A stretch of DNA of 64,000 nt from assembly GCA_902762305.1 (NCBI GenBank), contig CACWNW010000031.1, positions 19,047 to 83,046 of the forward strand, written 5' to 3'. Position numbers and translations under genes: made by a program. Source of the DNA: Fibrobacter succinogenes. Its GTDB lineage: Bacteria > Fibrobacterota > Fibrobacteria > Fibrobacterales > Fibrobacteraceae. This document shows, one piece after another, positions 9,946-62,298 of the stretch (its first letter is position 1; every line of letters starts with the position of its first letter). The notes under the pieces were generated by a model that did no database searches, had not been told where the DNA came from, and saw only the letters and a list, made by a program, of their open reading frames with translations.

Positions 9946-10060
9946 TGCGTTGTAGTATTTTACAAAATTTGAAATTCGAAAATCGCGAAAATGCCTTTGT
10001 AATCTAGGCCTTTTACATTTTTGACCATATTTTCAATAATTGGCGGGTGTTTTACATGTT

Positions 10061-10076
10061 TGGCACGATTTTTGCA
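10061..10076 (+). promoter_or_regulatory. Sigma54 (-24/-12) promoter of gltBD
   Basis: TGGCACGATTTTTGCA is an exact match to TGGCAC-N5-TTGCA, about 35 nt upstream of the gltB ATG at 10111. Confidence 0.7.
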
Positions 10077-10110
10077 AATAAAGAGCGCAAAAAGCAAGAA
10101 AAGGACTTTT

Positions 10111-45973: not shown

Positions 45974-46351
45974 CTTATTTCCTAAATTCTGTAAAATATA
46001 AGTTTTTACAGAATTATAGTAAAAATATACACTAATTTGCCAAAAAGTCAAGTCAACAAGTCCATTTTCACTCATATCATCTCCTTTGACGGATAGTACG
46101 ATAATACACAAATGTATACTATTTCTAAACAAATGTCAATAGGTAATTCAATTTATATGTCAGCCCCTTGTAGCATTTGCATAATTTTCTAACTTTTTTA
46201 CGAATAACTTACAACAGGTTGTTGCAAGCGCCGCATTTCGTTGTCTTCTATAGGTTCGGGCCCCCTCGCGATGATGCAGAACAGTGATATTTTGTTGAAT
46301 GGACCGCAGGCCGCAGTTCCCCGTGGACTGGGGGAATAAGCGGAGTTTCTC

Positions 46352-47146
46352 GTGACAGAATCCGTAAAATTGTCCATTTCCATTGTCGTCTACAAGAAAT
46401 ACGACGACGTCCTCCTGGCAATCGATTCAATCGAACGCTTCACGGACAAATCCCTGTCCAAGAGGCTGTACGTGGTCGACAACAGCTGCTATGCTGACGA
46501 CAACCACTACAAGAGTGCCTTTTTGGAGAGCCTCTCGAAATACGACGACGTGGAATATGTGGATACGAGGAAGAACCTTGGGTTTGGTAAAGGGCATAAC
46601 TATATAATTCCGTGTCTGAATTCGGAATACCACGCCATCGTCAACCCCGACATAGTCCTCTATTCCGATGTGTTTACCTCGCTGACATCTTTTTTGGACG
46701 CAAATCAAGATATTGGTATGACGGCTCCCGTACTGACGGATGAATACAACAATGTTCTCCGGGTGTACAGGCGGGACCTCACGGTATTAGATTTGCTGTG
46801 CCGCTATGTGCATCTAAATCTGCTGAAGAAAAGAATCGATTACCACACCATGGAAGATGTCGACAAGACGAAGGATTTCGATTGCGAATTCGTCCAGGGC
46901 AGTTTCTTGCTTTTGCGTACGGAAATTTTCAAGAAGGTCAGGGGTTTCGACGACCGCTACTTTATGTACGCCGAAGATGCCGACCTCTGCCGCACTATTC
47001 GCAAGTTTAGCCGCGTTGTGGTGCATCCGGAAACTCGCGTTGTGCATAAATGGGAAAAGGCCAGCCATACCAATTTCAAGTTGATGCGAATCCATGCCGT
47101 TTCGTTGGTGAAGTATTTCATGAAGTGGGGATGGAGATTATCGTGA
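46352..47146 (+). CDS. Glycosyltransferase family 2
   Basis: LSISIVVYKKYDDVLLAIDSI...YVVDNS...NLGFGKGHN...EDADLC is a GT-A/GT2 (rhamnosyltransferase-like) pattern. GTG start. Confidence 0.8.
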   Translation: MTESVKLSISIVVYKKYDDVLLAIDSIERFTDKSLSKRLYVVDNSCYADDNHYKSAFLESLSKYDDVEYVDTRKNLGFGKGHNYIIPCLNSEYHAIVNPDIVLYSDVFTSLTSFLDANQDIGMTAPVLTDEYNNVLRVYRRDLTVLDLLCRYVHLNLLKKRIDYHTMEDVDKTKDFDCEFVQGSFLLLRTEIFKKVRGFDDRYFMYAEDADLCRTIRKFSRVVVHPETRVVHKWEKASHTNFKLMRIHAVSLVKYFMKWGWRLS

Positions 47147-47223
47147 GTTTAGGCTTTGTAATTTGATTTTATGCTCTTTATGTTTGTTTAACACATTGTT
47201 TAAAAAATAGAGAAACACTATTC

Positions 47224-48345
47224 ATGAATGAATCGCAAATGCAATTAGTTGGAATGCGAGACGATGCCATTGATATTGTAAAAGGCCTCGCCATTATGGG
47301 TATTGTTTTGGGACACATTGGTGTGACGCTTCCTGCGTTTAAATTGTTTCATACAGGGGTGTTGCTCTATAGTATGTGGCATGTTGCCGTTTTTTTTGTA
47401 CTTTCAGGTTTCTTTCTAAATGATGAAAAATTAAAGAAGCCATGGTCATTTACCATTGGAAAAGTTAAATCGCTGTATTTGAAAACCTTGTGCTTTTATA
47501 TTCCCGCTGTTTTACTCCATAATATCCTAATAAAGATTGGATTTTATTCTGTGGATGTTAATTATGGGGGGAAAAAAATGGTGCTTTATTCTGGATTGGA
47601 TTTTGTAAAGAAAATTATAGAGTCTGTTTTGCTTGCAGGAAGAGAACCGATTGTTGGTCCTTTGTGGTTTGCATATGTTCTTTTCATTGCGTTGGTTGGT
47701 TATTCTATTTTATCATTTTTTATTGGAAAGTTTTTTAAGGATGAACAATATTGGATCGTTAAAGGGTTGCTTTGCTTTGCTCTGGCTATGGTGTCGAGTA
47801 TTTTAACGCAGAAATACTCTTTGACATTGAATCGTTTGAGTAATTCCGTTGCAGTAATGCTTTTGATTTTTTTTGGTCAACTTTTTAATGTTCGGTTGCG
47901 TCTCTCTTATAAATCAGGTTTATTTGCTATTGGAGCGGCGTTACTATTCTTTCATGAGGTTGTTTTTCATGGGGGAATAAGTTTAAATAATAATGCTTTT
48001 AATGGGGTTTTTCATTTGCTATGTGGTGGGGTGGCTGCGACATATATGTTGCTTTATATGGCAAAAAAAATTGAACATAATTTTTTGGGAATGATTTTGT
48101 CCTTAGTTGGGAGGCATTCTTTTGCTATTATGGCTCTACATTTGTTATCCTTTAAAATTTGCACGATGTTGTTAAATGGTTGCTTCGGTATGTCGATTCC
48201 TTTGGCAGAACTTATTCCTGGGGTTGGTAAAGAGTATGTTTTGGCAATTCCATATTTGTTGATTGGTACATTTGTCCCTGTTTTCGTTGCATGGTTGTTT
48301 TGCAAAATAAAGGGGTGCGCTATTTTGCGTAAAAAAGAATGCTAA
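47224..48345 (+). CDS. Acyltransferase family 3 (membrane O-acyltransferase)
   Basis: AIDIVKGLAIMGIVLGHIG followed by about 10 hydrophobic segments. Confidence 0.75.
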   Translation: MNESQMQLVGMRDDAIDIVKGLAIMGIVLGHIGVTLPAFKLFHTGVLLYSMWHVAVFFVLSGFFLNDEKLKKPWSFTIGKVKSLYLKTLCFYIPAVLLHNILIKIGFYSVDVNYGGKKMVLYSGLDFVKKIIESVLLAGREPIVGPLWFAYVLFIALVGYSILSFFIGKFFKDEQYWIVKGLLCFALAMVSSILTQKYSLTLNRLSNSVAVMLLIFFGQLFNVRLRLSYKSGLFAIGAALLFFHEVVFHGGISLNNNAFNGVFHLLCGGVAATYMLLYMAKKIEHNFLGMILSLVGRHSFAIMALHLLSFKICTMLLNGCFGMSIPLAELIPGVGKEYVLAIPYLLIGTFVPVFVAWLFCKIKGCAILRKKEC

Positions 48346-48387
48346 TACTTTATTGGTTGAATATGTTGATGATTAGAGGAAAATTTA

Positions 48388-49515
48388 ATGAGCCTTAATT
48401 TGGATTATATTCCTTCTACCATCAAAACAGTCATTGTTGTAAATGATTTCGATTATATTGAAGGTGGTGCTGCTAAGGTAGCTATCATGACTGCGGAAAC
48501 TTTAGTTAAAGCTGGCTATGATACGTATTTATTTTCGGCTGTTTCAAATGAGAATGCACCTAGGATAGATGGCTTAAAATACATTTCAGTGAATCAATAC
48601 CCATCACTTTTAGATCCGAATATCATTCGTGGGGCCTTGAATGGATTGTATAATTTTAAGGCCGCAAGAAAATTTAAAAAGCTTTTGAAAAAGTTGGATA
48701 ATAGAACAACATTGATTCATATTCATACATGGACAAAGGCTTTGTCTTGTAGTATTTGGAATGTTGCGTATGCATTGCATTTTCCTGTTTATTTAACATG
48801 TCATGACTATTTTTCAATATGTCCCAATGGCGGTTTCTTTGATTACCAAAAATTAGAAATTTGTCTTCGAAAGCCTTTGTCTGTTAAATGCCTAAAATGT
48901 AATTGTGATTCACGAAATTATGCTATAAAGCTTTATCGATTTGCTCGTTGTTTTGTGCAGAATAAAGTTGTGAATATTTTTGAGAAGACTGCAAAATTTA
49001 TATCCATTTCTGATTTTAGCGAAAGAATATTACAAGTATATTTTCCGCAAAATACCACGTTTCATCGAGTCAGCAACCCAATAGATAAAGTCAACCTACC
49101 CGAAATACATCCTGAAAAAAATGAATATTTTTTGTATGTTGGAAGACTTGCTAAAGAAAAAGGAATCGATATTTTCTGTCAAGCAATAAACGATAGCGGT
49201 GTAAAAGGTGTGGTTGTTGGTGATGGCCCTGAGTCTGAACTAATAAAAAAACAGTTCGCCAAAGCTAATATTGATTTTGTTGGATGGAAATCTCGTGATG
49301 AAGTCTTTGAATATATGAAAAGCGCTCGAGCACTAGTTTTTCCGTCAAGGTGGTATGAAACGGATGGATTAAGCGTTCGTGAGGCTTTGTCGATTGGACT
49401 GCCTTGTATTGTATCAAATAGCTGTGCTGCTAAGGAATATATAACGGATGACTCAAAGGGACGTGTATTTACTGATTATAAAATGTTAAAAAAACAAATG
49501 GAAGAGTTTGTATGA
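48388..49515 (+). CDS. Glycosyltransferase family 4 (GT-B)
   Basis: YVGRLAKEKGIDIF...VGDGPE...FPSRWYETDGLSVREALSIGLPCIVS contains the E-x7-E motif region. Confidence 0.8.
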   Translation: MSLNLDYIPSTIKTVIVVNDFDYIEGGAAKVAIMTAETLVKAGYDTYLFSAVSNENAPRIDGLKYISVNQYPSLLDPNIIRGALNGLYNFKAARKFKKLLKKLDNRTTLIHIHTWTKALSCSIWNVAYALHFPVYLTCHDYFSICPNGGFFDYQKLEICLRKPLSVKCLKCNCDSRNYAIKLYRFARCFVQNKVVNIFEKTAKFISISDFSERILQVYFPQNTTFHRVSNPIDKVNLPEIHPEKNEYFLYVGRLAKEKGIDIFCQAINDSGVKGVVVGDGPESELIKKQFAKANIDFVGWKSRDEVFEYMKSARALVFPSRWYETDGLSVREALSIGLPCIVSNSCAAKEYITDDSKGRVFTDYKMLKKQMEEFV

Positions 49516-49907
49516 AACCTTATAAATGCGCAATAACATATGGAACATTCGATTTATTCCATATCGGACACTTACGACTATTGGAGCGGATTTCTAATAT
49601 GGCTGAAAAAGTAATTGTTGCAGTTTCTTCAGACGAGTTTAATGCGTTAAAAGGGAAGAAGTGTGCAATTTCGTACGAAAATCGCCGTGATATTATTGCT
49701 GCATTAAGAGTAGTAGACAAAGTAATAAAAGAAGAGTGCTGGGAGCAAAAAGTTGATGATATTCGTAGAGAAAAATGCGATGTTTTTGTTATGGGAGATG
49801 ATTGGAAGGGTAAGTTTGATTTTTTGAAAACTGAGTGCGATGTCTTATACCTTCCTCGTACTCAAGGAGTCAGTTCTTCGGAAATAAAGGAATCTTTGCG
49901 AGGCTAA
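49512..49907 (+). CDS. tagD: Glycerol-3-phosphate cytidylyltransferase
   Basis: ITYGTFDLFHIGHLRLLERI (HxGH motif) and RTQGVSSSEIK. 131 aa. Confidence 0.9.
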   Translation: MKPYKCAITYGTFDLFHIGHLRLLERISNMAEKVIVAVSSDEFNALKGKKCAISYENRRDIIAALRVVDKVIKEECWEQKVDDIRREKCDVFVMGDDWKGKFDFLKTECDVLYLPRTQGVSSSEIKESLRG

Positions 49908-49908
49908 A

Positions 49909-50721
49909 ATGTCTTTCGATCCTGGTCTAAAAAGAATTCATGAAATTTTATTGGAAATAGCAGAATCTTTCCATCAGGTCTGCGAAAACAATAAAATCCA
50001 ATACTATATGCTTGGCGGAACCATGTTAGGGGCGACTCGTCATAAAGGGTTTATTCCTTGGGATGACGATATGGATTTTGGAGTTATGGCTGAAGATTGG
50101 CCTAAATTGATTGAGGTGCTAAATAAAGACTTGCCTCAATATTACAGGGTTCGTGATATAAAAAACACCAGAGGTATTTCTAATCCATCTATAAAGATTG
50201 AAGATGTTAGAACAATCATACAGGAAACAGACAAAGCTGGTGAAAATGATATTATTGGAATCAATATTGACATTTTTCCTCTTAATTACACAAATGAGAG
50301 AAAAAGTTTTTTTTCAAAAAATGGTTTAATTGAAAATTTAATTCGTTTGAATTTATGCCGTTTTTTAGATTATAGATCAAAACCTCTTATAAAAAGGGCC
50401 TTGTCGAATATATATAAGATAATTCTTTCCCCGTTTCCGAAAGATTTTCTTATCTCGATTATACAAAAGTATTTGGTGACCAATAATGGAAATTGTATTA
50501 CAAATTATTGGGGTGCATGGATAAATAAAGAAATTGTTCCTGCAGAAGTTATGGGAAAACCTTCCAAATATGTATTTGAAAATACTTTTTTTTGGGGTGT
50601 TGCAAATCCTGATGAATATTTAAAACATTTATATGGTGATTATATGAAAATACCTCCTGAGAATAAAATTCATTATCATGTTCTTGATTGGAAATATCGA
50701 GGTGATTACAAAAGTACGTAA
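49909..50721 (+). CDS. licD: LicD-family phosphotransferase
   Basis: YYMLGGTMLGATRHKGFIPWDDDMDFGV is the LicD signature (DxD). Confidence 0.85.
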   Translation: MSFDPGLKRIHEILLEIAESFHQVCENNKIQYYMLGGTMLGATRHKGFIPWDDDMDFGVMAEDWPKLIEVLNKDLPQYYRVRDIKNTRGISNPSIKIEDVRTIIQETDKAGENDIIGINIDIFPLNYTNERKSFFSKNGLIENLIRLNLCRFLDYRSKPLIKRALSNIYKIILSPFPKDFLISIIQKYLVTNNGNCITNYWGAWINKEIVPAEVMGKPSKYVFENTFFWGVANPDEYLKHLYGDYMKIPPENKIHYHVLDWKYRGDYKST

Positions 50722-50768
50722 AATCTAATTGTTTCGAAAAATAATTTGAATGCATAAATTGTGATAAA

Positions 50769-51839
50769 ATGAGAATATTATTTATAGTTAGAACGCTGGG
50801 ATATGGTGGCGCAAGCAAACAACTTGCTCTACTAGCTAATGCGTTGTCAAATTTTGGACATGAAGTCTCGATTTATGTGTATTGTGCAAAAGATATTGAA
50901 CAAGTCTTAAATTCAACGGTTTCGGTTTCTTTTGCCGATAATGTCCCGCAGAATAAAATTGTAGAATATTTACGTTCTGTCGCTTGTATAAGGCGTGAGA
51001 TAAAGAGAATTCAGCCGAATGTTGTTGTTTCATGGCGGTGCAATGCGGGGTGCTTAACAAAAATTGCATCCTTGGGATTGAGAGTGAAAACTATTTTTAG
51101 TGAGCGTACTGATCCTTTCACAGAAACCTCTTTTTTTCTAAAGATTTCATCTTTTGTCTGTGGCTTTTCTGATGGAGGAGTCTTCCAATTGGAGTCAGTT
51201 CGAAAATATTATGGGAGATTATACCATAAGAGTGTTGTTATCCCGAACCCAATTGAATATGCAGGGGAGTTAAATGAGATTATCCCGTATGAGAAAAGAC
51301 CTCTTCGAATAGCGTTTGTTGGACGGACTGTTATCTCGCAAAAGAGACAAGATGTGGCTATTGAAGCCTTTGAATTTTTTTTAAAGAAACATCCTGATTT
51401 TGAACTTCACATTTACGGAGATGGATGTGATCAAAATAAGGTTAAGGAAATGACTTCCCGAAAGGGTTTAATAGACAAGGTTGTATTTCATGGATCTGTA
51501 AAAAATATAACTGAGAAAATTTGTAACTCAAAAGTCTTGCTACTAACATCAGATTATGAAGGAATTCCTAATGTAATCTTGGAGGCGTTTGTTGCGGGCG
51601 TTCCCGTTGTGTCAACTAATTGCAGTCCTGGAGGGGCCAAATTCTTAATCGGCAACGATGAATGCGGTAGATTGGCTCCAGTTCAAAATCCTTTGGTTTT
51701 ATCTCAAAAAATGACTGAAATTGTTGAAAATGTGGAACTGGCTAAGAAGTGCATTTTTAATGGACGCTGTAGGCTGCATGATTTTTTGCCGGAGAATATA
51801 TATAAGAATTGGGAAAACTATTTGAAAACAATAATGTAG
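50769..51839 (+). CDS. Glycosyltransferase family 4 (GT-B)
   Basis: MRILFIVRTLGYGGASKQ...FVGRTVISQKRQDV...LLTSDYEGIPNVILEAFVAGVPVVST. Confidence 0.8.
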   Translation: MRILFIVRTLGYGGASKQLALLANALSNFGHEVSIYVYCAKDIEQVLNSTVSVSFADNVPQNKIVEYLRSVACIRREIKRIQPNVVVSWRCNAGCLTKIASLGLRVKTIFSERTDPFTETSFFLKISSFVCGFSDGGVFQLESVRKYYGRLYHKSVVIPNPIEYAGELNEIIPYEKRPLRIAFVGRTVISQKRQDVAIEAFEFFLKKHPDFELHIYGDGCDQNKVKEMTSRKGLIDKVVFHGSVKNITEKICNSKVLLLTSDYEGIPNVILEAFVAGVPVVSTNCSPGGAKFLIGNDECGRLAPVQNPLVLSQKMTEIVENVELAKKCIFNGRCRLHDFLPENIYKNWENYLKTIM

Positions 51840-51851
51840 ATGTGATTTATT

Positions 51852-52964
51852 ATGATTATTTATTGGTTGACATTTTTAATATCGTTTTCTTCGTATCATT
51901 TTTCTTTTTACTTTCGTAAAAAGGTGGTGTCTTTTTTTCTTAAAGGGATTGCGGTGATAATCCCATCTTTGGTTGCTGCTTTTAGAGATTTAGATGTTGG
52001 AAAAGATATTGCAACGTATGGCTTGCAGACTTTTGACCTGGCGATTAAATCAAACTCTTTTGCTAATCCTTTTGATCTTTTTCGAGATCAAGCTATTGAA
52101 ATCGGCTATATTATTGTTAATATGATTGTGTCCTTTTTTTCAACATCATATCATGTACTTTTCTTTGTTTTGCAGTTTATTGTTTTGGTATTGACTGTTG
52201 TTGGATGCGAACTTTTGAAGAAAAATCTAAAGCAACCACAATGGCTTTTTTTGATGTATTTATTGTTTAATTATTGTATGTCTTTTAGCATGTTAAGACA
52301 ATCTATTGCACTTGCGGTTTTTATTGTTAGTATTAGATTTTTATTAGATAGAAAAGTTTTCTTATATAGTCTATTTATTTTTATTGGATTTTTATTTCAT
52401 AAGTCAATTCTATTTGTTTATCCAGTGTATTTTGTACCAATCCTGCTAGAGAAATATCCCAAAGTGCCATGGTATGCGGTTTTAGCACTTCTTGGGGTTG
52501 GATTGTATTTCTTTTTCCCATCTCTAGTTCCTTGGGGAATTTCTATAGGAGTAATAGAACCTAAGTATATGCGTTATGTGGATGATTCTTTTTCAACTCA
52601 TAAGAATAATATGGCCTTTTTTGCGTTTACATTTTTCTATTTCTTCCTTATTTCAAAAATTAAGAACTTGACGCCTCTTTTAAAATATAAGCAGGTTCTT
52701 ATATGTTCCTTGTCGATCTGTGCGTTTATGATTGAATTGTGTGGTTCTTATAATGACGTTGCGTCACGTGTCGCAAAATATATTTTCTTATTGATTTTAG
52801 TTCTTTGGTTTGATTTTTTCCCGGCTTTTCAAGAAAAATGGAGAATAAATAGGCATGTTGTATTGCTAGTCGCATTTATGTTTGTTTATTTCTTGTATAA
52901 TTCACAATCACCTGATGGCTTGGCTAATACAATTCCTTATCGCTCTTCAATATTGGGTATTTAA
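51852..52964 (+). CDS. EpsG/O-antigen-polymerase-like polytopic membrane protein
   Basis: 370 aa with about 10 TM segments and no other motifs. Its position and topology match Wzy/EpsG-type polymerases. Confidence 0.6.
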   Translation: MIIYWLTFLISFSSYHFSFYFRKKVVSFFLKGIAVIIPSLVAAFRDLDVGKDIATYGLQTFDLAIKSNSFANPFDLFRDQAIEIGYIIVNMIVSFFSTSYHVLFFVLQFIVLVLTVVGCELLKKNLKQPQWLFLMYLLFNYCMSFSMLRQSIALAVFIVSIRFLLDRKVFLYSLFIFIGFLFHKSILFVYPVYFVPILLEKYPKVPWYAVLALLGVGLYFFFPSLVPWGISIGVIEPKYMRYVDDSFSTHKNNMAFFAFTFFYFFLISKIKNLTPLLKYKQVLICSLSICAFMIELCGSYNDVASRVAKYIFLLILVLWFDFFPAFQEKWRINRHVVLLVAFMFVYFLYNSQSPDGLANTIPYRSSILGI

Positions 52965-52965
52965 T

Positions 52966-53892
52966 ATGGATTTTATGAAAAAAATTGTTGTCTATTCTGA
53001 AAAGTCTCCATCTGCATCTTTTGTGATGAAAGGTGTGAATCACGATGTTGCAGAAACGGTTTGCCTTGCAATGAAAAAGGACTTTTTTTCAAAATTGTTT
53101 TTTAAAATATTTTTCTATTTGCACTTGTACAAGATTGCTGTTCTGTTTCGGTTTGAAAAAAATATTCGCATGAAAATAAAATCAGGAAAAATTCAAAAAG
53201 TGATTTTTTTTGATTGTGTCTTATTGAAAGAATATTTTGTTTTAGATACGCTGATGAAAAAAAAACAAGGGAAATACATCTATTTTTGGAATCCTATTAA
53301 ATATCGACAGTCTAATGAAAATAAAGCGAAATTCTTGTTGAAAAAACTGGAAAAAATGGGATTTGTTTTAAAAACGTTTGATTTAGAAGACTCTAAAAGA
53401 TATCAAATAGCTTTTTTAAAAAGTCCAAATAGAAGAATATCTTTTAATCAAAAGAGAAAGATTGTTGATTTTTATTTTGCTGGATTGCCTAAAGGTCGAG
53501 AATGTTTTTTGGAAACAATGAAGGAAGAATTGCTGAAAAAGAACTTTTCTTCAAAGTTTATTCTTGTTCGAGGTAAAAAAGATTATATCTCACAAGAAGA
53601 AAACCGAATTAATTCTGAAAATTGTAGGTGCATAGTTGATTTAGTGTCAGATGCTTATGGACAGGCGAATCTATCTTTGAGATCTACGGATGCTCTTTTC
53701 TTGGAAAAGAAGGTAATCACAAATTGTGAAGCTGTTGTTGATGCTGATTTTTATAATCCTGCAAATATTTTTTTAATAAGGAACATGTCTTTGGATGGAA
53801 TAGAAAATTTTATGAACAGACCGTACGAAAAGATTTCTGAAAACATTGTAAACAGTTATGAAATAAATAACTGGTTGAAAAATAATTTTTGA
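52966..53892 (+). CDS. Hypothetical polysaccharide-biosynthesis protein
   Basis: Start trimmed to ATG 52966, 1 nt after the upstream stop. Lys-rich, AT-rich. Family not recognised. Confidence 0.5.
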   Translation: MDFMKKIVVYSEKSPSASFVMKGVNHDVAETVCLAMKKDFFSKLFFKIFFYLHLYKIAVLFRFEKNIRMKIKSGKIQKVIFFDCVLLKEYFVLDTLMKKKQGKYIYFWNPIKYRQSNENKAKFLLKKLEKMGFVLKTFDLEDSKRYQIAFLKSPNRRISFNQKRKIVDFYFAGLPKGRECFLETMKEELLKKNFSSKFILVRGKKDYISQEENRINSENCRCIVDLVSDAYGQANLSLRSTDALFLEKKVITNCEAVVDADFYNPANIFLIRNMSLDGIENFMNRPYEKISENIVNSYEINNWLKNNF

Positions 53893-53901
53893 GGAAAGAT
53901 T

Positions 53902-54471
53902 ATGATTTCTACAAAACACGAATTGAAAGAATTTCTTACGGCAGATCGTGTGGCTATGGGTTTTGAAAAAAAATCCAGGTTGATTGAACTTTTAAAGGGG
54001 AACCTTGATTCTGTAATGCTTCTCAACCATATGATTTTTTTGCGAAAATATGAGTACTTTCTATCGAAAGGAAAAAGAAAATCTTTTTTTTATAAGTTGA
54101 GATATTTGTATTACAAACATACTTATGCTAGGAAGAAATTAAAAAGTAATTTATTTATTAGTCCCAATGTTTTTGATAAAGGACTTTGTTTAGTTCATCC
54201 TGGGTATGTGTGGATTGACCGATCCTCTAGAATAGGTAAAAACTGTACTGTTCTTCCCAGAGTTCTTTTGGGAAAAAAACACCCGGGAATTCCGGCTCCT
54301 TGCATTTTTATTGGCGATAACTGCTATATTGGTACGGGAGCTACTATTTTAGGGCCAATCCGTATAGGTAATAATGTGACAATTGCTGCAGGAGCTGTTG
54401 TGGTTAAGGATGTCCCTGATAATTGCATTGTTGCTGGGAATCCCGCAAAAATTGTAAAATACAAAGAATAA
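53902..54471 (+). CDS. Hexapeptide-repeat (LbH) O-acetyltransferase
   Basis: IGKNCTVLPRVLLG...IGDNCYIGTGATILGPIRIGNNVTIAAGAVVVKDVPDNCIVAGNPAKIV. Confidence 0.8.
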   Translation: MISTKHELKEFLTADRVAMGFEKKSRLIELLKGNLDSVMLLNHMIFLRKYEYFLSKGKRKSFFYKLRYLYYKHTYARKKLKSNLFISPNVFDKGLCLVHPGYVWIDRSSRIGKNCTVLPRVLLGKKHPGIPAPCIFIGDNCYIGTGATILGPIRIGNNVTIAAGAVVVKDVPDNCIVAGNPAKIVKYKE

Positions 54472-54477
54472 TTATAT

Positions 54478-55968
54478 ATGAATCAGCGTAAAATAGGTGC
54501 TTTACTCTCTTATGCGACGATAGGCTTACAGAATTTGGTAGGTCTTTTATATACGCCCTATTTATTGAGAATGCTTGGCAAATCTGATTATGGTTTGTAT
54601 TCTCTTGTAACCTCAATTATTTCGTATTTAACGTTGTTGGATTTTGGCTTCGGTGATGCTGTTGTTCGTTATACGGCGAAATTTCGAGCTGAGGGGAAAA
54701 CGAAAGAGCAATATTCCATGTTTGGGATGTTTTCCATGATTTATTTCGCTATTGCTATTGTAGCGTTAATTCTGGGCTTAGTACTTTCGTTTAATTTAGA
54801 ATATTTCTTTTCTGATACAATGTCGAAAACGGAAATATCTCGAGCAAGAATTATGTTGTTATGTCTTGCCGGAAACTTGGCTGTTACGTTTTTCTTTAGC
54901 ATATATAAAGCAATCTTGGATGCTTATGAACAATTTGTTTTTGTTCGTGCATTGAATGTAGCCAGGATTATTTTGAATACATTTATAATGATTGTTCTCC
55001 TTCAATACGGATTTAAGGCTGTTGCTTTAGTTGTTGTTACGACAATTTTAAATGTTGTGATTATGTTGATGAATTTTTTCTATTGCATGATTAAACTTAA
55101 TGTGCATGTGCATTTTCGTAATCTTCCGTGGTATAACTTGAAAGAAATTGGTTGTTATTCGATTTTTATTTTTTTGAATAGCTGCATAAGTCATGTTTAT
55201 TGGTTTTCTGGACAATTTATACTTGGCATGTATTGGGGGGCGCAACTCATTGCTGTTTATGCTATTGCCATTCAGTTAGTGAATATGTTTAAACATTTTT
55301 CTAGTGCTATCTCATCTGTTTTTTTCCCAAAAGTTGTATTGTTGTCGGTGCAAGAAAATTCAAACGAAGAAATATCAAATCTTTTTAATAGAATAGGTCG
55401 TTTGCAGTATATAATTATTTCTTTGATTATCTCTGGATTTATAGTTTTTGGACGAGAATTTATTCTATTGTGGGCTGGTGATGGCTATGAAAAGGCTTAT
55501 TTTATTACTCTGATTTTTTTCGTATCTTTGTTGCCTGCGCAAACTCAACAGATTGGATGGATTGTGTGTAAAGCAAGAAATCATTTAAAGTTTCGGACCT
55601 ATGTCTATATTGTAATTGCTATATCTTGTTTGATTGCGCAGGTTTTGGGATCTAAATATTTTGGTATTATGGGTAATGCAATTCCAATAGGTTTTTCTCT
55701 TATTTTAATGGAAGGCTTTATTTTGAATGTATACTACCAAAGAGTTGAACATATTGATATCATGAAATTTTGGAGAAATATATTGAAGCTGTCTGTAATT
55801 CCTGTTATATTGGTTTGGCTGTCTTTTTATTTGAAGCAAAAAGTAACTTTTGACTCGTGGCCCTTTTTGCTGTTGGGCATGGCTGTTTTCGGAACTGCTT
55901 TTGTTTTGTTGTCTTTCTTGTTCAGTTTTAATAAATATGAAAAGAATTTATTTTTCCGAAAAAAATAG
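54478..55968 (+). CDS. wzx: Wzx-type polysaccharide flippase (MOP superfamily)
   Basis: 496 aa with about 12-14 TM segments. The N-terminus (LLSYATIGLQNLVGLLYTPYLLRMLGKSDYGLYSL) is typical of polysaccharide-biosynthesis flippases. Confidence 0.75.
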   Translation: MNQRKIGALLSYATIGLQNLVGLLYTPYLLRMLGKSDYGLYSLVTSIISYLTLLDFGFGDAVVRYTAKFRAEGKTKEQYSMFGMFSMIYFAIAIVALILGLVLSFNLEYFFSDTMSKTEISRARIMLLCLAGNLAVTFFFSIYKAILDAYEQFVFVRALNVARIILNTFIMIVLLQYGFKAVALVVVTTILNVVIMLMNFFYCMIKLNVHVHFRNLPWYNLKEIGCYSIFIFLNSCISHVYWFSGQFILGMYWGAQLIAVYAIAIQLVNMFKHFSSAISSVFFPKVVLLSVQENSNEEISNLFNRIGRLQYIIISLIISGFIVFGREFILLWAGDGYEKAYFITLIFFVSLLPAQTQQIGWIVCKARNHLKFRTYVYIVIAISCLIAQVLGSKYFGIMGNAIPIGFSLILMEGFILNVYYQRVEHIDIMKFWRNILKLSVIPVILVWLSFYLKQKVTFDSWPFLLLGMAVFGTAFVLLSFLFSFNKYEKNLFFRKK

Positions 55969-55980
55969 GTTAGTAGATTT

Positions 55981-57444
55981 ATGCGCAAACTGATTATGCT
56001 ATTGCTATTTTTTTGGGGGAATACTGCTTTAGCGGCACCTGTTATTTCTCCGGAACGATATAATCTCAAGCTGCTAGAAACGGCGCCTTTGCTATTTGAA
56101 TTCCATAGACTTACAACAACTTCGGTAAAACAAGAGTTTTATTTCCCAAAAAGAGATTCAACTTGGCATGCTAATGCTGCAGAACGCGAGCGGAATGCTT
56201 TGTTGAAATATGGTTCGGATAAGGTTTTCTTGGCAGCAAGTGTTGTAGGGGGAGTTGAATATTGTGGTGGTGAAATTTTGGGTGATACCATATGGCCTGG
56301 GTTTGATGGTGGCTTGTATTTGAGAGGGTATGTTGATTCTTTAGAATTTGTATTAGATGCTCGTATTTATTCAGAAGGTCATTCAGCAAAAATTCCTAAA
56401 TCTTTTGATGGTGAATATATAGATATTCAAAGTGGCGAAAATAATGATGGAATAGAATATGCCAGTTATGCTCGATATCGAGGTCATATCGCTTTAAATA
56501 TGGGCTTTGCTCGTTTTGATGTGGGACGAGATGTGGTGCATTGGGGACCTGGCTATTATAATAATTTGGCGTTAAACCAATTTTCCTTACCTTTTAATTC
56601 AATGTCGCTTGACTTGCAAGCTGGTCCTCTTACTGTTGTTTCTATTTATGGCGATTTGCGTATTTATAAAGGATATGTTAACGAAGGCAATAAAAATGCT
56701 AGAAATCTATATGGGCATCGTTACGAATTGAATTTTGGAGACCTGATTATTGGTGTTAGCGAATTACAAGTTGTTTACGACGATAATGATATTTGGCTTT
56801 TTGTTCCAATTGTTCCGCTTTTCATAGAAAAGGGTAATTATACAGAAAGCTCTAATAATGGTGCGATTTCGTTAGATATTAATTATCGCCTATTTAACAT
56901 GGCTCGTATTTATACTGAATTCTTTTTAGATGACTTGCATAGTCCAAATAAACTTATCGAAAATAAGGATGTTCAGTCGAAATGGGCCTGGATGATTGGT
57001 TTGCAAGTTGGGCATGATTTTGAATATAAAACGCATTTGCTGGAATTGGGAATGATTGCTGAATATGCTCGTGTTGAACCTTATGTGTATACCCATTTTA
57101 AAAGTAATACAGCACAAATGGCTCATTTAGAGGTCCCTCTTGGTAATCAGAACGGTCCTAATAGTCGAACCATTGATTGGTTGTTTTATTCAAGGTTAGA
57201 TGATTGTTGGATGATTGCTTTGCATCAGAGATGGTCTTGGAAGGGTACTGATGCGGGAAGCTCTTTGGATGATCCTACGCCTGCATATCATGCTCATATA
57301 AACAAGTCTTTCCTGCGTGGTGCAAAAATGCAATATTCCATAACCCCAATTTTGGGATACGAAGGTCGTTTTACAAACTTCGCTCTTGAATGGACTTTTG
57401 TGGATGATGCTAAAGTTTATGCAAGAATGGGTTTTAAGTGGTGA
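55981..57444 (+). CDS. Wzi-like outer-membrane capsule-assembly protein
   Basis: Signal peptide (MRKLIMLLLFFWGNTALA). The beta-barrel-like sequence includes FDVGRDVVHWGPGYYNNLALNQFSLPFNS, reminiscent of the Wzi WGPG motif, and ends ...YARMGFKW. Confidence 0.5.
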   Translation: MRKLIMLLLFFWGNTALAAPVISPERYNLKLLETAPLLFEFHRLTTTSVKQEFYFPKRDSTWHANAAERERNALLKYGSDKVFLAASVVGGVEYCGGEILGDTIWPGFDGGLYLRGYVDSLEFVLDARIYSEGHSAKIPKSFDGEYIDIQSGENNDGIEYASYARYRGHIALNMGFARFDVGRDVVHWGPGYYNNLALNQFSLPFNSMSLDLQAGPLTVVSIYGDLRIYKGYVNEGNKNARNLYGHRYELNFGDLIIGVSELQVVYDDNDIWLFVPIVPLFIEKGNYTESSNNGAISLDINYRLFNMARIYTEFFLDDLHSPNKLIENKDVQSKWAWMIGLQVGHDFEYKTHLLELGMIAEYARVEPYVYTHFKSNTAQMAHLEVPLGNQNGPNSRTIDWLFYSRLDDCWMIALHQRWSWKGTDAGSSLDDPTPAYHAHINKSFLRGAKMQYSITPILGYEGRFTNFALEWTFVDDAKVYARMGFKW

Positions 57445-57566
57445 AGTGATGTAACTGGCAACTTGCAAAGTTTTAGATTTAAATGAGAGGCTGAGGATTT
57501 GGACTTCGCTTTCGAACTGTAATTGATATAACGGCGCTTTAGAATGATTGCGCGAAGGAACGCATT

Positions 57567-58653: not shown

Positions 58654-58734
58654 CGACAAGAACCCGCTACGGTAGGGTGAATCCTCGCCAAGGAAATTTT
58701 TGCGGAGGCGCTACGCGCCCCCGCAAATTTTTTT
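58654..58734 (+). repeat. Left copy of an ~80-bp direct repeat (epimerase 3' tail plus terminator)
   Basis: CGACAAGAACCCGCTACGGTAGGGTGAATCC...TTTGCGGAGGCGCTACGCGCCCCCGCAAATTTTTTT is about 89% identical by eye to 62216-62298. It contains GAC AAG AAC CCG CTA CGG TAG (DKNPLR*) and a terminator hairpin at 58699-58734. Confidence 0.8.
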
Positions 58735-58755
58735 CAAAAAAATGAAGCCGGTGTA

Positions 58756-58784
58756 TTGACAGCCGCTTTCTGTTTGTTTATATT
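58756..58784 (+). promoter_or_regulatory. Putative sigma70-type promoter of the three-gene cassette
   Basis: TTGACA (58756-58761), 17 nt, TATATT (58779-58784), about 90 nt upstream of the ATG at 58877. Confidence 0.45.
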
Positions 58785-58876
58785 TGATAGTGAACAAATG
58801 TGTAATATGTTGATTTTTTTGAAAATAATTGGTGGTCTGTCAGTTTATGGCGAAATAAGTTTTGTAATTTTAGCAT

Positions 58877-59746
58877 ATGAAGAAATTGTATGACATAGAA
58901 CAGCTTCATTACTACGCCTCCCTTTTCTCGGGGAATGTGGTTCAGCGTTCTTTGAAGTATAATGATTATTCAGCTATTTTTGAGTGCTTGCATAGGTATG
59001 ATTCTGATTTGATGAGTCGAGGTCTAACATACTGGGATTATTTCGACTATGTCTATCGTATTCTGGAAAAAAACTATCGTAATGAGTATGTCTACAAGAA
59101 TACTCTAATCAAAGGGTATATTGTAAAGGAATATTCGTTAAAAGAGACGAAAGTATTTAATGAGTTCCGGATAGGGTCGTCCATTGCTGATTTAGCGATG
59201 TTTAATGGAACAAGTAAGGCTTTTGAAATAAAAACCGAATTAGACAACGACAAACGGTTGGCTTCTCAGCTTGGTGAATATGCGAGGTTGATGGAGGAAT
59301 CGTATCTAGTCGTTTCGGCAGATTTAGTTGATAAGTATCGGTCAGATGTAGATAAATCGGTTGGGATAATTAGTTTGTGTCGACAGGGGCGCTCGTTAAA
59401 GATTGAACGGTTGCGCAAGGCTCGGAAAAATAGTTGTGTCGATATCGATATCCTTATGTCATCTGTTAGGTGTGACGAATATAGGTGGATGGTCAAGACG
59501 GCTTATGGTAGTTTGCCGGATGTGTCGGATTTTGAAATGTTTGATGCTTGCAAAGACCTTTTGAATCGATTGTCGTCTATAAAATTGCAGCGGCTTTTTT
59601 TGGATGCTGTCAAAAAAAGAAAAAATTCAACAGGTCTTCTGAAATCTGTTCCTCGATCCGCGAATTTATTGTGCTTGTCCATGGATTGGAATGAACGTTA
59701 TTTTGCAAAGTTGAATGAATTATATAGTCAACCGATAAAAATGTAG
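58877..59746 (+). CDS. PD-(D/E)xK nuclease-like protein, sce7726-type family
   Basis: 289 aa. The motif ...FNEFRIGSSIAD(105)LAMFNGTSKAFE(117)IK(119)TELDNDKRL... fits the restriction-endonuclease-fold D...ExK core. The overall layout matches my memory of the NCBI 'sce7726 family protein'. Confidence 0.65.
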   Translation: MKKLYDIEQLHYYASLFSGNVVQRSLKYNDYSAIFECLHRYDSDLMSRGLTYWDYFDYVYRILEKNYRNEYVYKNTLIKGYIVKEYSLKETKVFNEFRIGSSIADLAMFNGTSKAFEIKTELDNDKRLASQLGEYARLMEESYLVVSADLVDKYRSDVDKSVGIISLCRQGRSLKIERLRKARKNSCVDIDILMSSVRCDEYRWMVKTAYGSLPDVSDFEMFDACKDLLNRLSSIKLQRLFLDAVKKRKNSTGLLKSVPRSANLLCLSMDWNERYFAKLNELYSQPIKM

Positions 59747-59755
59747 GGGGTACAT

Positions 59756-60730
59756 ATGTACTATCCGTATTTGAGGGGAAAACAGTTTGAACTGTTGGCG
59801 CTGCGCGAACTGTCCAAAACGGGCGCGTTGCCCGACTATAGTCATGTTTGTCCTATTTTAGAACCACTTAAGGCTGACGTTTCCGCCAATCAGAACGCTA
59901 TTGGTGCGATGTTGAACTGTGGCATGCGGTTTGCTCTGATATTGAATCCTTTTCGTGGTGACTTTGGACGTGATTCGGGTGAATTTGCACAGGAATCCTT
60001 GAAATTTATCCGGGAAAGTGGCAGCACGTCTTGGATTCCGGCATTCTTAATGGACTCTAATGTTGATTTGGCCAGGACGATAATTAGGGAATGTCGACTA
60101 AAAGATATTATGCTTGTTGCTCAAGAAGATGCAGAATTTGATCAATTCGAAGAATGGCTTGCTTCTGGAATGGTCAAGTATTTCGTAGCCCCTGAATCAA
60201 AAAGGAATATGCGCAAAATTCAGCGCTTAAAAAGAAAACCGATGTTGATTCGTTTGGATGACAAGTTTCCTTCTGTTAAGCGTAATGATGATTATCGTAA
60301 TACGGACGAATCGCCCAATAATGAAGATCAGCTTTTTTCTGAGGAATATCTCTTTTACAAAGATGATCATTACGATGGTTTCGCCGATTATACGCTTTTG
60401 ACAAAAATGTTGACTGATGGCGGTGCCTTGCCGTATGTTGTGGCAATTCATTTAACATATTTGGGCAAAGATGATGAAATTAGGGTTCGCCATTTCTTGT
60501 CAGATTCCAATTCTAAGGGGCGCGAAAATATTCAGAGAAAGTTCGCAGAAGCGGCGGAAAAAGTAAAAATGTTCTTTGCTAAAAGGAATGACAGAACGGC
60601 TGCTGTAGATGAACTCGTTCAGTTTTTGGAGGATGGACATTATCCTGGTCTTGGAAGTATCAAGAAACTTTCCATAAAACATCACATTCAACTAGTGGAT
60701 CATCTTCTAAGAGAGGAGTCTGGAAGATGA
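59756..60730 (+). CDS. Beta-protein / sce7725-type family protein (function unknown)
   Basis: The N-terminus MYYPYLRGKQFELLALRELS is the hallmark of the Pfam 'Beta_protein' / NCBI 'sce7725 family' as I recall it. 324 aa. A GGGGG purine run lies just upstream of the ATG, which starts 9 nt after the previous stop. Confidence 0.6.
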   Translation: MYYPYLRGKQFELLALRELSKTGALPDYSHVCPILEPLKADVSANQNAIGAMLNCGMRFALILNPFRGDFGRDSGEFAQESLKFIRESGSTSWIPAFLMDSNVDLARTIIRECRLKDIMLVAQEDAEFDQFEEWLASGMVKYFVAPESKRNMRKIQRLKRKPMLIRLDDKFPSVKRNDDYRNTDESPNNEDQLFSEEYLFYKDDHYDGFADYTLLTKMLTDGGALPYVVAIHLTYLGKDDEIRVRHFLSDSNSKGRENIQRKFAEAAEKVKMFFAKRNDRTAAVDELVQFLEDGHYPGLGSIKKLSIKHHIQLVDHLLREESGR

Positions 60731-61725
60731 GAATATGCGCAGAATGTTTTAAAGCTCAAGATTGGGTAGAACATGTTAAGGCCTATGGTGCGCCAGGACG
60801 GTGCGGTTGTTGTAAATGTGAATCAGATTATACAGTTGATCTTTCTGACCTGCATGCCGTACTAGAAAACCTTTTGGATTTTTTTGAGCCTGTTGAAAAT
60901 GGCAAACCGTTGTCGGTGCTGATTCAAAATGATTTTGACATTGCGAAAAATGAAAAAGTCGTTAAGTTTATTTTTGATTGGCATTTTCAGAACGAATTGC
61001 GTGCAGAAAGCAATTTGGGTTACCGATATAAAGCATCTGTTTTGCAACCAATAGGGGAATGGAATGAACTTAAGGAAACGCTGAAATACAGGTTTCGGTT
61101 CTTTTCTGGGAATAAAACGGGTCAGTTGGCGTGGAAAGATTATTTTGAGTATAATGAAGAAATTCCAACGGGATGTCGCTTTTATCGAGGCCGTTTAAAC
61201 GAAAAAGAGAATTATGAGTACCATTTGCCGGAAGAATTGGGTATGCCGCCTAAAGGAATAACGCCAAATGGACGCGCAAATGCTCACGGAATCCCATGTT
61301 TGTATTTGACAACGAAGTTGGATACAACTATGTATGAATTACGCTCGGTTTTTGGTGATAAGATCTCAATAGCTTTTTTTGAAACTACTGATACACTGCG
61401 TGTTGTTGATTTTGATAAAAAGCCCTTGCTTTTCGAAGCCTATGAAAATGATATCTTGCCGAGTGTTATTAAAGGGTATTTTTTGAAAAAGCATATTGGA
61501 GAGAATCTTTCTAAACCGATGCGTCGTTATGATTACAAGGATTTGGAGTATGTTCCAACACAGTTCGTATGTGAATTTATAAAGCAGTCGGGGTTTGATG
61601 GAATTTTATTTAATAGCGCGGTACATCCAAGTGGAAAAAATTTAGTACTGTTTGATGATGCGAAGGTTAAGTTCGTTGATTATTGTGTAAAGACGGTTGG
61701 AAATACGCAGATGCAATTTGCCTGA
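60727..61725 (+). CDS. RES-domain protein with N-terminal Cys-cluster (HEPN/RES-NTD1-like) module
   Basis: N-terminus MRIC4AEC7...RC26GC28CKC31. RES domain motifs are FYRGR156, PPKGITPNGR183ANAHGIPCLYL, MYE204LRS and YVPTQFVCEFIKQSGFDGILFNS297AVHPSGKNLVLF. ATGA overlap with the upstream gene. Confidence 0.8.
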   Translation: MRICAECFKAQDWVEHVKAYGAPGRCGCCKCESDYTVDLSDLHAVLENLLDFFEPVENGKPLSVLIQNDFDIAKNEKVVKFIFDWHFQNELRAESNLGYRYKASVLQPIGEWNELKETLKYRFRFFSGNKTGQLAWKDYFEYNEEIPTGCRFYRGRLNEKENYEYHLPEELGMPPKGITPNGRANAHGIPCLYLTTKLDTTMYELRSVFGDKISIAFFETTDTLRVVDFDKKPLLFEAYENDILPSVIKGYFLKKHIGENLSKPMRRYDYKDLEYVPTQFVCEFIKQSGFDGILFNSAVHPSGKNLVLFDDAKVKFVDYCVKTVGNTQMQFA

Positions 61726-61739
61726 TGTTGTTAAGATAT

Positions 61740-62237
61740 GAAAAAGGCAAGGTGGTAAACCTCGCGGCACAGGCCGGCGTGTGCTACTCCATCACGAACC
61801 CGTATGCCTACATGCAGAGCAACATGGTCGGTTTTCTCAAAGCATCTGCTCTATGCGTCGTCCAGTTCTGTTTATGGCCTGAACAGCAAGGTGCCCTACA
61901 GCGAAGACGACAAGGTTGACAACCTGAGGGCGAGCCCATCAAGGTGTTCAACAACGGCGACATGATCCGCGACTTCACCTACATCGATGACATCGCTGAG
62001 GGCAGCGTGCATGCGCTCGACCACATGCCTGTCGCGGAAAAGTGCTCGAACGGCGTTCCGTACAAAGTATACAACATCGGCTGCAAGGTGCCGATGCAGC
62101 CCGGCGACGTTTACCAGACGAACGCCGATACCACGAAACTCGAGGCCGAATGCGGATACAAGCCGCACTGGAGCCTGCACGACGGCATCGCCGAGTTCAT
62201 GAAGTGGTACAAGAGCGACAAGAACCCACTGAGGTAG
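61740..62237 (+). pseudogene. Decayed NAD-dependent epimerase (UDP-glucuronate 4-epimerase-like) remnant
   Basis: Four collinear GC-rich pieces: GKVVNLAAQAGVCYSITNPYAYMQSNMVGFL / HLLYASSSSVYGLNSKVPYSEDDKVDN (other frame) / EPIKVFNNGDMIRDFTYIDDIAEG...PYKVYNIG / VPMQPGDVYQTNADTTKLEAECGYKP...WYKSDKNPLR*. The N-terminal Rossmann part and several internal blocks are missing. Confidence 0.75.
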
Positions 62238-62298
62238 GGTGAATCCCCGCCAAGAAAAGCTTTGCGGAGGCGCTAACGCGCCCCCGCAATATTTTTTT
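62216..62298 (+). repeat. Right copy of the ~80-bp direct repeat (epimerase 3' tail plus terminator)
   Basis: CGACAAGAACCCACTGAGGTAGGGTGAATCC...TTTGCGGAGGCGCTAACGCGCCCCCGCAATATTTTTTT. The terminator hairpin lies at 62261-62298. Confidence 0.8.

Follow-up and report, generated by a model that had tools for sequence, protein, structure and literature searches.

A conserved sce7726–sce7725–RES operon in Fibrobacter succinogenes as a candidate anti-phage system that joins Gop-β-cII-like and aRES-like modules

A 64,000-nucleotide (nt) stretch of a Fibrobacter succinogenes genome (contig CACWNW010000031.1, positions 19,047 to 83,046; hereafter the window) carries a cassette of three open reading frames (ORFs), ORF1, ORF2 and ORF3, between rfbB and the remains of an epimerase gene, and the question that this locus raises is what the three genes do together. 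An earlier note on the same DNA had proposed that a nuclease-like protein of the sce7726 type, a Beta-protein/sce7725-type protein and a protein with a cysteine cluster and a RES domain form an uncharacterised, NAD+-targeting defence system of the abortive-infection type, and this is still the best-supported reading. On balance it appears probable that the triad is an anti-phage abortive-infection system merging modules of two known systems, Gop-β-cII from satellite phage P4 and the stand-alone antiphage protein aRES, with a β/cII-like pair controlling an aRES-type NADase. The term uncharacterised holds for the triad itself, a combination whose description or test is absent from the searchable literature and which is new as such, but not for its components, which are tied to the validated gop-β-cII and aRES systems. 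In that literature sce7725 and sce7726 appear only as incidental mentions in gene lists. The layout of the cassette in the ORF list agrees with that given in the earlier note: the three ORFs lie on the + strand (Table 1), the gap between ORF1 and ORF2 measures 9 nt (59747-59755), and the stop of ORF2 overlaps the start of ORF3 in an ATGA (60727-60730).

By its sequence, ORF1 is a member of the sce7726 family, which is also the family of P4 cII. It matches the NCBIfam model sce7726_fam with an E-value of 2.9e-45 and the PADLOC model 'cll' with one of 2.2e-17, and in a BLASTP alignment with P4 cII itself (E 2e-11) the two E…D…ExK motifs are in register. Homologues of ORF1 bear the Pfam domain Phage_P4_cII (PF26915), and in the P4 record the Prokaryotic Genome Annotation Pipeline (PGAP) names cII a 'sce7726 family protein' and β a 'beta family protein'. 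A set of 27 homologues, P4 cII being one of them, shows no variation at E96, D105, N110, G111, E117-I118-K119, D123 and Q131, and among these residues is the D105…E117-I-K119 core that had been picked out as belonging to a restriction-endonuclease fold. Judged from sequence, E…D…ExK is the signature of a PD-(D/E)xK nuclease. No Pfam nuclease model matched ORF1, and its family profile found no sequence relative among the Protein Data Bank (PDB) chains. An N-terminal extension of ~70 residues is absent from P4 cII.

ORF2 begins MYYPYLRGKQFELLALREL, as the earlier note stated, and the sce7725 part of its assignment is borne out by a match to NCBIfam sce7725_fam with an E-value of 1.4e-72. The Beta-protein part stands less directly: the Pfam model Beta_protein (PF14350) is matched by 11 of 63 sce7725 family members, with a best E-value of 4.3e-6, and ORF2 itself is not one of these. 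ORF2 is nevertheless likely, on sequence comparison, to be a remote homologue of P4 β that lies outside the curated β model, and both BLASTP and hhalign align the two proteins in the region of the N-terminal YYPxLR…E motif. No match was obtained to the PADLOC PD-Lambda-2_C models, and searching the sequence against PDB chains gave nothing meaningful. The AlphaFold2 (AF2) model, with a mean local confidence (pLDDT) of 87.4 and a predicted template-modelling score (pTM) of 0.89, is built of alternating β-α elements. Its top Foldseek matches in the PDB are all triosephosphate isomerase (TIM) barrels, though weak ones (best E 1.6e-3, TM-score ≤0.40), and the predicted fold is a divergent TIM-barrel-like one. 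The polar residues R7, Q10, E12, E36, N64, R166, D168, N177, D211, H232, H246, S249, K262, E265, K303 and K304 are invariant, and several are positioned at predicted strand ends. Invariant polar residues at the strand ends of a TIM barrel would suggest a ligand-binding or catalytic site.

ORF3 matches the Pfam RES domain (PF08808) with an E-value of 1.6e-14, as do all 35 of the 35 members of its family. Residues R154, R183, N185, E204, R206 and S297 are invariant. The earlier note had thus identified R183, E204 and S297 correctly, but the invariant arginine of the YRGR motif is R154 and not R156, which is ~90% conserved; similarly, within the cysteine cluster CxxC...CxCCxC the core CxxC…CxxC (C4, C7, C26 and C29) is conserved, while the additional C28 and C31 are not. 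The AF2 model (pLDDT 85.7) is matched by Foldseek to the catalytic domain of diphtheria toxin, the Xre-RES toxin of P. putida and tankyrase, all of which have ADP-ribosyltransferase folds; sequence searches of ORF3 and of its family profile against PDB chains gave nothing meaningful. With hmmscan the HEPN/RES-NTD1 model (PF18870) does not match ORF3, and 6 of the 35 family members match it, with a best E-value of 1.4e-6. As so few members match, and a stand-alone 459-residue aRES-type protein of K. pneumoniae also matches only weakly (E 0.003), the missing hit to ORF3 is uninformative. Comparison of the ORF3 family with this stand-alone protein by hhalign (99.6% probability, E 1.8e-23) aligns residues 2-311 with 6-352, covering both domains, and the N-terminal domain of ORF3 is very probably, at the level of sequence, the same as that in aRES. 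By profile searches, then, the domain assignments made for all three ORFs were correct. PGAP names the ORF3-type family 'RES family NAD+ phosphorylase'.

The RES proteins of the triad are about 330-361 residues long and lack the ~107-residue C-terminal extension of the 459-residue stand-alone form, which fits with regulation being supplied in trans. The possibility that this extension is a fused ORF1 or ORF2 was rejected (hhalign E 0.3-0.4), and ORF1 and ORF2, compared with each other, are unrelated. ORF3 as a divergent Gop was likewise rejected, as it has no similarity to P4 Gop and no match to the PADLOC 'gop' model; P4 Gop is a protein of 133 residues without a RES domain.

The three-gene operon is genuine and is conserved across hundreds of bacterial species. 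A scan anchored on sce7725, using one genome per species in about 185,000 species-representative genomes, found at least 581 genomes with a sce7725 gene of the triad type, and synteny was counted from the sce7725 side in the best 80 loci of these relatives. All three genes are present in 73 of the 80, on one strand and in fixed order, with gaps mostly of about -20 to +18 nt, and six of the seven incomplete loci end at contig ends. In the opposite direction, from the RES gene in metagenomes, 76 of 77 informative loci have sce7725 directly upstream and 63 of 64 have sce7726 upstream, so that the neighbourhood analysis bears out the triad as a unit. About 150 related loci have the co-directional order cII-like, β-like, RES that is found in the window. 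The hosts include Bacteroidota and Fibrobacter as well as integrative conjugative elements (ICEs) of Salmonella and plasmids of Rhizobium and Moraxella; the triads of a Salmonella houtenae ICE and of the Rhizobium and Moraxella plasmids recur at 27-34% identity and are annotated by PGAP as 'sce7726 family protein / sce7725 family protein / RES family NAD+ phosphorylase'. Searched with the sce7725 profile, sequences clustered at 50% identity yield 1,517 representatives. No conserved fourth gene, antitoxin or regulator, was seen in the flanks of the 80 loci, and no Xre/MbcA/ParS-type antitoxin gene adjoins the triad in the window, in agreement with the earlier note.

Four loci depart from the complete arrangement at the RES gene. 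In that of Flavobacterium nitrogenifigens (L024), sce7726 and sce7725 are present and the RES gene is missing, although the locus extends over 5 kb of downstream sequence, and in L063, L066 and L074 the RES gene is truncated or interrupted. These missing or broken genes may reflect decay of a toxic effector, or insertion events.

A mechanism can be proposed in which ORF3 is the effector. Once activated it would phosphorolyse NAD+ to nicotinamide and ADP-ribose-1''-phosphate (ADPR-1''-P), and the depletion of NAD+ would arrest the infected cell. ORF1 and ORF2 would be the counterparts of cII and β and would act as a joint control module, silencing the RES enzyme in uninfected cells and, by analogy, releasing or activating it on sensing a phage cue. 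The analogy behind this role is that β neutralises Gop and that the β-like PD-λ-2C is essential for defence; most likely, an aRES-type NADase replaces Gop in the triad. Since the same families accompany unrelated toxins (Gop, HigB/Xre-peptidase and RES), the mode of action of the cII/β partners is probably sensing and control at the level of proteins, and not effector-specific chemistry. One partner may be the sensor and the other the restraint, with the phage cue as the trigger, and the RES proteins of this clade would be NAD+ phosphorylases.

Several observations weigh against this proposal. The function given to the triad is drawn from homology and synteny rather than from experiment. The link of ORF2 to P4 β is remote, with an E-value of 0.001 by BLASTP, over the N-terminus only, and of 0.005 by hhalign against the single sequence, and ORF2 itself is matched by neither Beta_protein nor the PADLOC model 'beta'. 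In P4, gop is followed by β with cII convergent, in contrast to the co-directional cII-like→β-like→RES order of the triad. The identity of ORF3 to the validated aRES of E. coli UC5 is 25% by BLASTP (E 3e-8), and the alignment covers the RES half only. RES domains can, moreover, serve as ADP-ribosyltransferases, for example in ParT. The enrichment of defence genes within two genes on either side of the triad is modest, at about one in ten loci, and many of the flanks are housekeeping or polysaccharide genes. Stand-alone aRES also needs no partners (bioRxiv 10.64898/2026.01.28.702374), and it is synteny only that argues for a requirement for ORF1 and ORF2.

Some of these points would suit other explanations, which are taken here in decreasing order of likelihood. 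Modest defence enrichment in the immediate flanks, together with the presence of the triad on plasmids and ICEs, is what might be expected of a module that serves mainly in addiction or stabilisation, with ORF3 as its toxin and ORF2, alone or together with ORF1, as its labile antitoxin, a module which would maintain ICEs, plasmids and islands and for which defence would be incidental. RES domains are classic type II toxins, and Gop/β was originally described as a toxin-antitoxin-like pair (PMC9122126). This explanation nonetheless seems unlikely, as both parent systems, gop-β-cII and aRES, protect against phage, many chromosomal copies of the triad lie outside obvious mobile elements, and three genes with catalytic-type conservation in each exceed the needs of a toxin-antitoxin pair. 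The low identity to validated aRES (~25%) and the fit of the ORF3 fold to diphtheria toxin and tankyrase as well as to RES NADases would also be consistent with an enzyme that acts as ParT does, ParT being a RES-domain ADP-ribosyltransferase. ORF3 would then ADP-ribosylate a specific host target, such as Prs, or a phage target, ORF1 and ORF2 would aid the targeting, and NAD+ would not be depleted. However, among functionally tested proteins the nearest relatives that share the two-domain architecture of ORF3 are NAD+ phosphorylases, and the PGAP family name points the same way, which makes a ParT-like role quite improbable.

The remaining explanation, that ORF3 is an autonomous aRES next to which ORF1 and ORF2 hitch-hike as a separate two-gene module with no functional interaction, would be in keeping with aRES homologues functioning alone in E. 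coli and with the common clustering of defence genes. Against it is the near-absolute linkage in both directions across phyla, in which the order is constant and the gaps or overlaps, the ATGA junction among them, are small, whereas mere neighbours would vary in order and spacing. The triad RES proteins, furthermore, form a short clade without the C-terminal extension of the stand-alone form. Simple neighbourhood is for these reasons very improbable, the least likely of the explanations considered.

Control of an aRES-type NADase by a β/cII-like pair within a defence system could also be one instance of something broader. The β/cII-type pair might be a portable module for sensing infection and controlling effectors that are unrelated to each other: Gop in P4, HigB/Xre-peptidase in PD-λ-2 (with β only) and the aRES NADase in the triad. 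Under this scheme the Zn-ribbon domain would let a ligand of ORF2 gate the RES enzyme, and ORF2 may act enzymatically to make, destroy or bind that ligand, a small molecule or one derived from nucleic acid, a role put forward because of the invariant polar residues at its strand ends. We regard this broader scheme as rather doubtful. If true, it would be a new regulatory route for NAD+-depleting defences and would give a first mechanistic handle on P4 β and cII.

The cassette is horizontally mobile, as seen from its AT-rich composition, from the different flanks that it has in 95%-identical relatives and from the copies on ICEs and plasmids. Its GC content is 38-42%, compared with ~55% for the flanking rfbB and epimerase remnant and 52-60% for the core of the window, so that it is indeed AT-richer than its flanks, as had been remarked. 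The rfbB protein belongs to a 93%-identity cluster made up of Fibrobacter sequences, which points to Fibrobacter as the most likely host. Similarity to the 95%-identical relatives begins and ends inside the direct repeats that flank the cassette (Table 1), and the common segment is exactly 58728-62260, the decayed epimerase included. In the relatives the same segment is found in another polysaccharide locus, between its own pair of similar hairpins. This suggests that the cassette moved by insertion or recombination at terminator hairpins. No further copies of the flanking hairpin were found in the window beyond the two with a mismatch-only search and a regular expression, the copies themselves differing by an indel. 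Translation of the epimerase remnant in frame 1 contains stops; the remnant also accompanies the triad in loci L175-L177, with stretches of ~165 nt and ~75 nt that are absent from the window.

Table 1. Positions, in the window, of the three ORFs, the promoter-like site and the flanking elements
Feature	Position	Strand	Description
Left direct repeat	58666-58726	+	Follows the rfbB stop directly; left copy of a ~62-nt direct repeat, imperfect; last codons of the epimerase (DKNPLR*)
Left hairpin	58699-58727		GC-rich, terminator-like
Promoter-like site	58756-58784	+	TTGACA-N17-TATATT upstream of ORF1; 11/12 consensus positions, the best of the region
ORF1	58877-59746	+	289 aa; sce7726 / P4 cII family by sequence, PD-(D/E)xK-type motif
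ORF2	59756-60730	+	324 aa; sce7725 family, likely remote P4 β homologue, predicted divergent TIM-barrel-like fold
ORF3	60727-61725	+	332 aa; aRES-type by sequence: N-terminal Zn-ribbon (HEPN/RES-NTD1-like) then RES, ADP-ribosyltransferase-fold
Epimerase pseudogene	61740-62244	+	Decayed NAD-dependent epimerase; 5'-truncated, frameshifts, internal deletions, ~55% GC
Right direct repeat	62227-62289	+	Right copy of the ~62-nt repeat; epimerase 3' end plus terminator-like hairpin (62262-62289)

In the window, in Bacteroides sp. (L006/L007), where it ends a capsule locus, and in relatives from Logan (L175-L177), the triad occupies the distal end of a polysaccharide or capsule locus, and genes for GDP-mannose dehydratase or epimerase adjoin 3 of the 80 loci. 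The glycan genes of the window (46000-57500) were probably also acquired horizontally, because their GC content is 30-35% against 52-60% in the core. Within two genes on either side, the surroundings of the 80 loci are heterogeneous. Some include type I or III restriction-modification genes, mad2, PDC candidates, integrases or transposases, and housekeeping and sugar-nucleotide genes are found there too.

One of the neighbourhoods of the triad is a Fibrobacter defence island with AAA_15/AAA_21 ATPases and Abi_alpha. A full-length Abi_alpha gene is situated directly upstream of the triad in a Fibrobacter metagenome-assembled genome (MAG; L001:4362-5129); the gene is truncated in the closest relatives (L175:4195-4599, L176:3584-3988 and L177:2368-2706) and absent from the window. 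On a Flagellimonas ICE (L003) the triad adjoins the coupling protein of a type IV secretion system and a DUF4062 gene, the latter at 10047-10637, 1 kb downstream of the triad. DUF4062 has reportedly been renamed, in a preprint of September 2026, as an NADase domain that serves in bacterial immunity. The element may for this reason carry two NAD+-targeting defences side by side.

The promoter-like sequence that had been noted ahead of ORF1 is present (Table 1) and falls within the segment common to the 95%-identical relatives. It was scored against a sigma-70-type consensus, which may not be that of Fibrobacter, and such sites are not above chance in the region, with 12 found and 9.4±3.1 expected. 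The leader at 58754-58818 and a site in the Fibrobacter MAG (L001:16484-16548) share 80% identity over 65 nt; this site lies 7 kb from the triad of the MAG and directly upstream of a helix-turn-helix gene. The likeness may reflect a shared regulatory element. An Rfam scan of the cassette and leader gave as its sole match a chance-level microRNA on the hairpin.

The triad would be a widespread natural hybrid that links two systems, P4 Gop-β-cII and aRES, described independently of each other. Many proteins counted as stand-alone aRES, especially those of Bacteroidota, probably operate within a three-gene operon. For the β and cII proteins, the triad would supply a partner with an easy biochemical read-out, the conversion of NAD+ to ADPR-1''-P, with which their regulatory role becomes testable. 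The system gop_beta_cll is catalogued in DefenseFinder and PADLOC, the latter with the models gop, beta and cll. The PADLOC 2.0 models miss the triad and match ORF1 alone, weakly, and defence annotation under-calls the triad for this reason.

Earlier work on P4 Gop-β-cII is reportedly that of Ghisotti in 1990, and to our knowledge the functions of P4 β and cII have been unknown since then. The gop-β-cII genes of satellite phage P4 form an anti-phage system giving protection against λ and P1; Gop is toxic without β, and the two were first described as a toxin-antitoxin-like pair (Rousset et al, 2022; PMC9122126). The cell-death activity of the system is triggered by the phage gene orf184 (bioRxiv 10.1101/2023.04.06.535777). 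The P4 system is thus mobile, toxin-antitoxin-like, abortive and triggered by a phage protein. It resembles the triad in having three genes, among them a member of the cII/sce7726 family, a β-related protein with the YYPxLR…E motif, in the triad a likely remote homologue, and a toxic effector, a role proposed for ORF3. In contrast to the triad, its effector, Gop, is unrelated to RES, and ORF2 belongs to sce7725 and not to Beta_protein and is missed by the PADLOC 'beta' model. Loci with P4-type β on proteobacterial plasmids retain the convergent β→ ←cII arrangement with other genes upstream. On a P. putida plasmid with this arrangement (L091:3686-4744), the 'toxin slot' holds a 352-residue protein with no Pfam match, and on an Azospirillum plasmid (L090), also with β→ ←cII, the annotation shows no gop-like gene, and nearby genes encode an ImmA/IrrE peptidase and a sigma factor.

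A second system with a β-like component is PD-λ-2 (Vassallo et al, 2022), a three-gene abortive-infection system in which the β-like protein C is needed for defence but not for neutralisation of the toxin (PMC9519451). P4 β matches the PADLOC model PD-Lambda-2_C with an E-value of 8e-14. PD-λ-2 shares with the triad, as proposed, three genes, abortive infection and a β-like component, its third, but its other components are HigB-like and Xre-peptidase proteins, and neither cII/sce7726 nor RES is present. The RES toxin-antitoxin systems Xre-RES, MbcTA and ParST have in common with the triad an NAD+-consuming RES enzyme, and the P. putida Xre-RES toxin is among the structural matches of the ORF3 model. 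They differ in that the triad is without an Xre/MbcA/ParS antitoxin, ORF3 has in addition the putative Zn-ribbon domain, and the partner families are unrelated.

aRES (Osterman, …, Sorek, January 2026) is a stand-alone antiphage RES-domain protein, defined as having 300-600 residues and containing RES and PF18870 at an HHsearch probability >80%; the preprint prints the RES domain as PF00808, although RES is PF08808 (bioRxiv 10.64898/2026.01.28.702374). Its enzymatic products from NAD+ are nicotinamide and ADPR-1''-P, and it shields E. coli from phage, as shown for the homologues of E. coli, Klebsiella and Enterobacter only; partner genes are not mentioned in the preprint (bioRxiv 10.64898/2026.01.28.702374). 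The aRES census of 1,526 genomes includes Flavobacterium xinjiangense CGMCC 1.2749, a strain that bears the triad (L035), which indicates that the published family probably already holds triad-embedded proteins. Counter-defences to aRES are aRad1 and NARP1-AP. In common with aRES, ORF3 has an N-terminal CxxC…CxxC domain followed by RES, and its length falls within the 300-600 residues of the definition. The aRES-type gene of the K. pneumoniae plasmid is located between parAB and umuDC, without sce7725 or sce7726 partners. In contrast to such single-gene systems, the RES genes of the ORF3 clade are preceded by sce7726 and sce7725 genes, and their shorter products (about 330-361 as against ~459 residues) end without the C-terminal extension.

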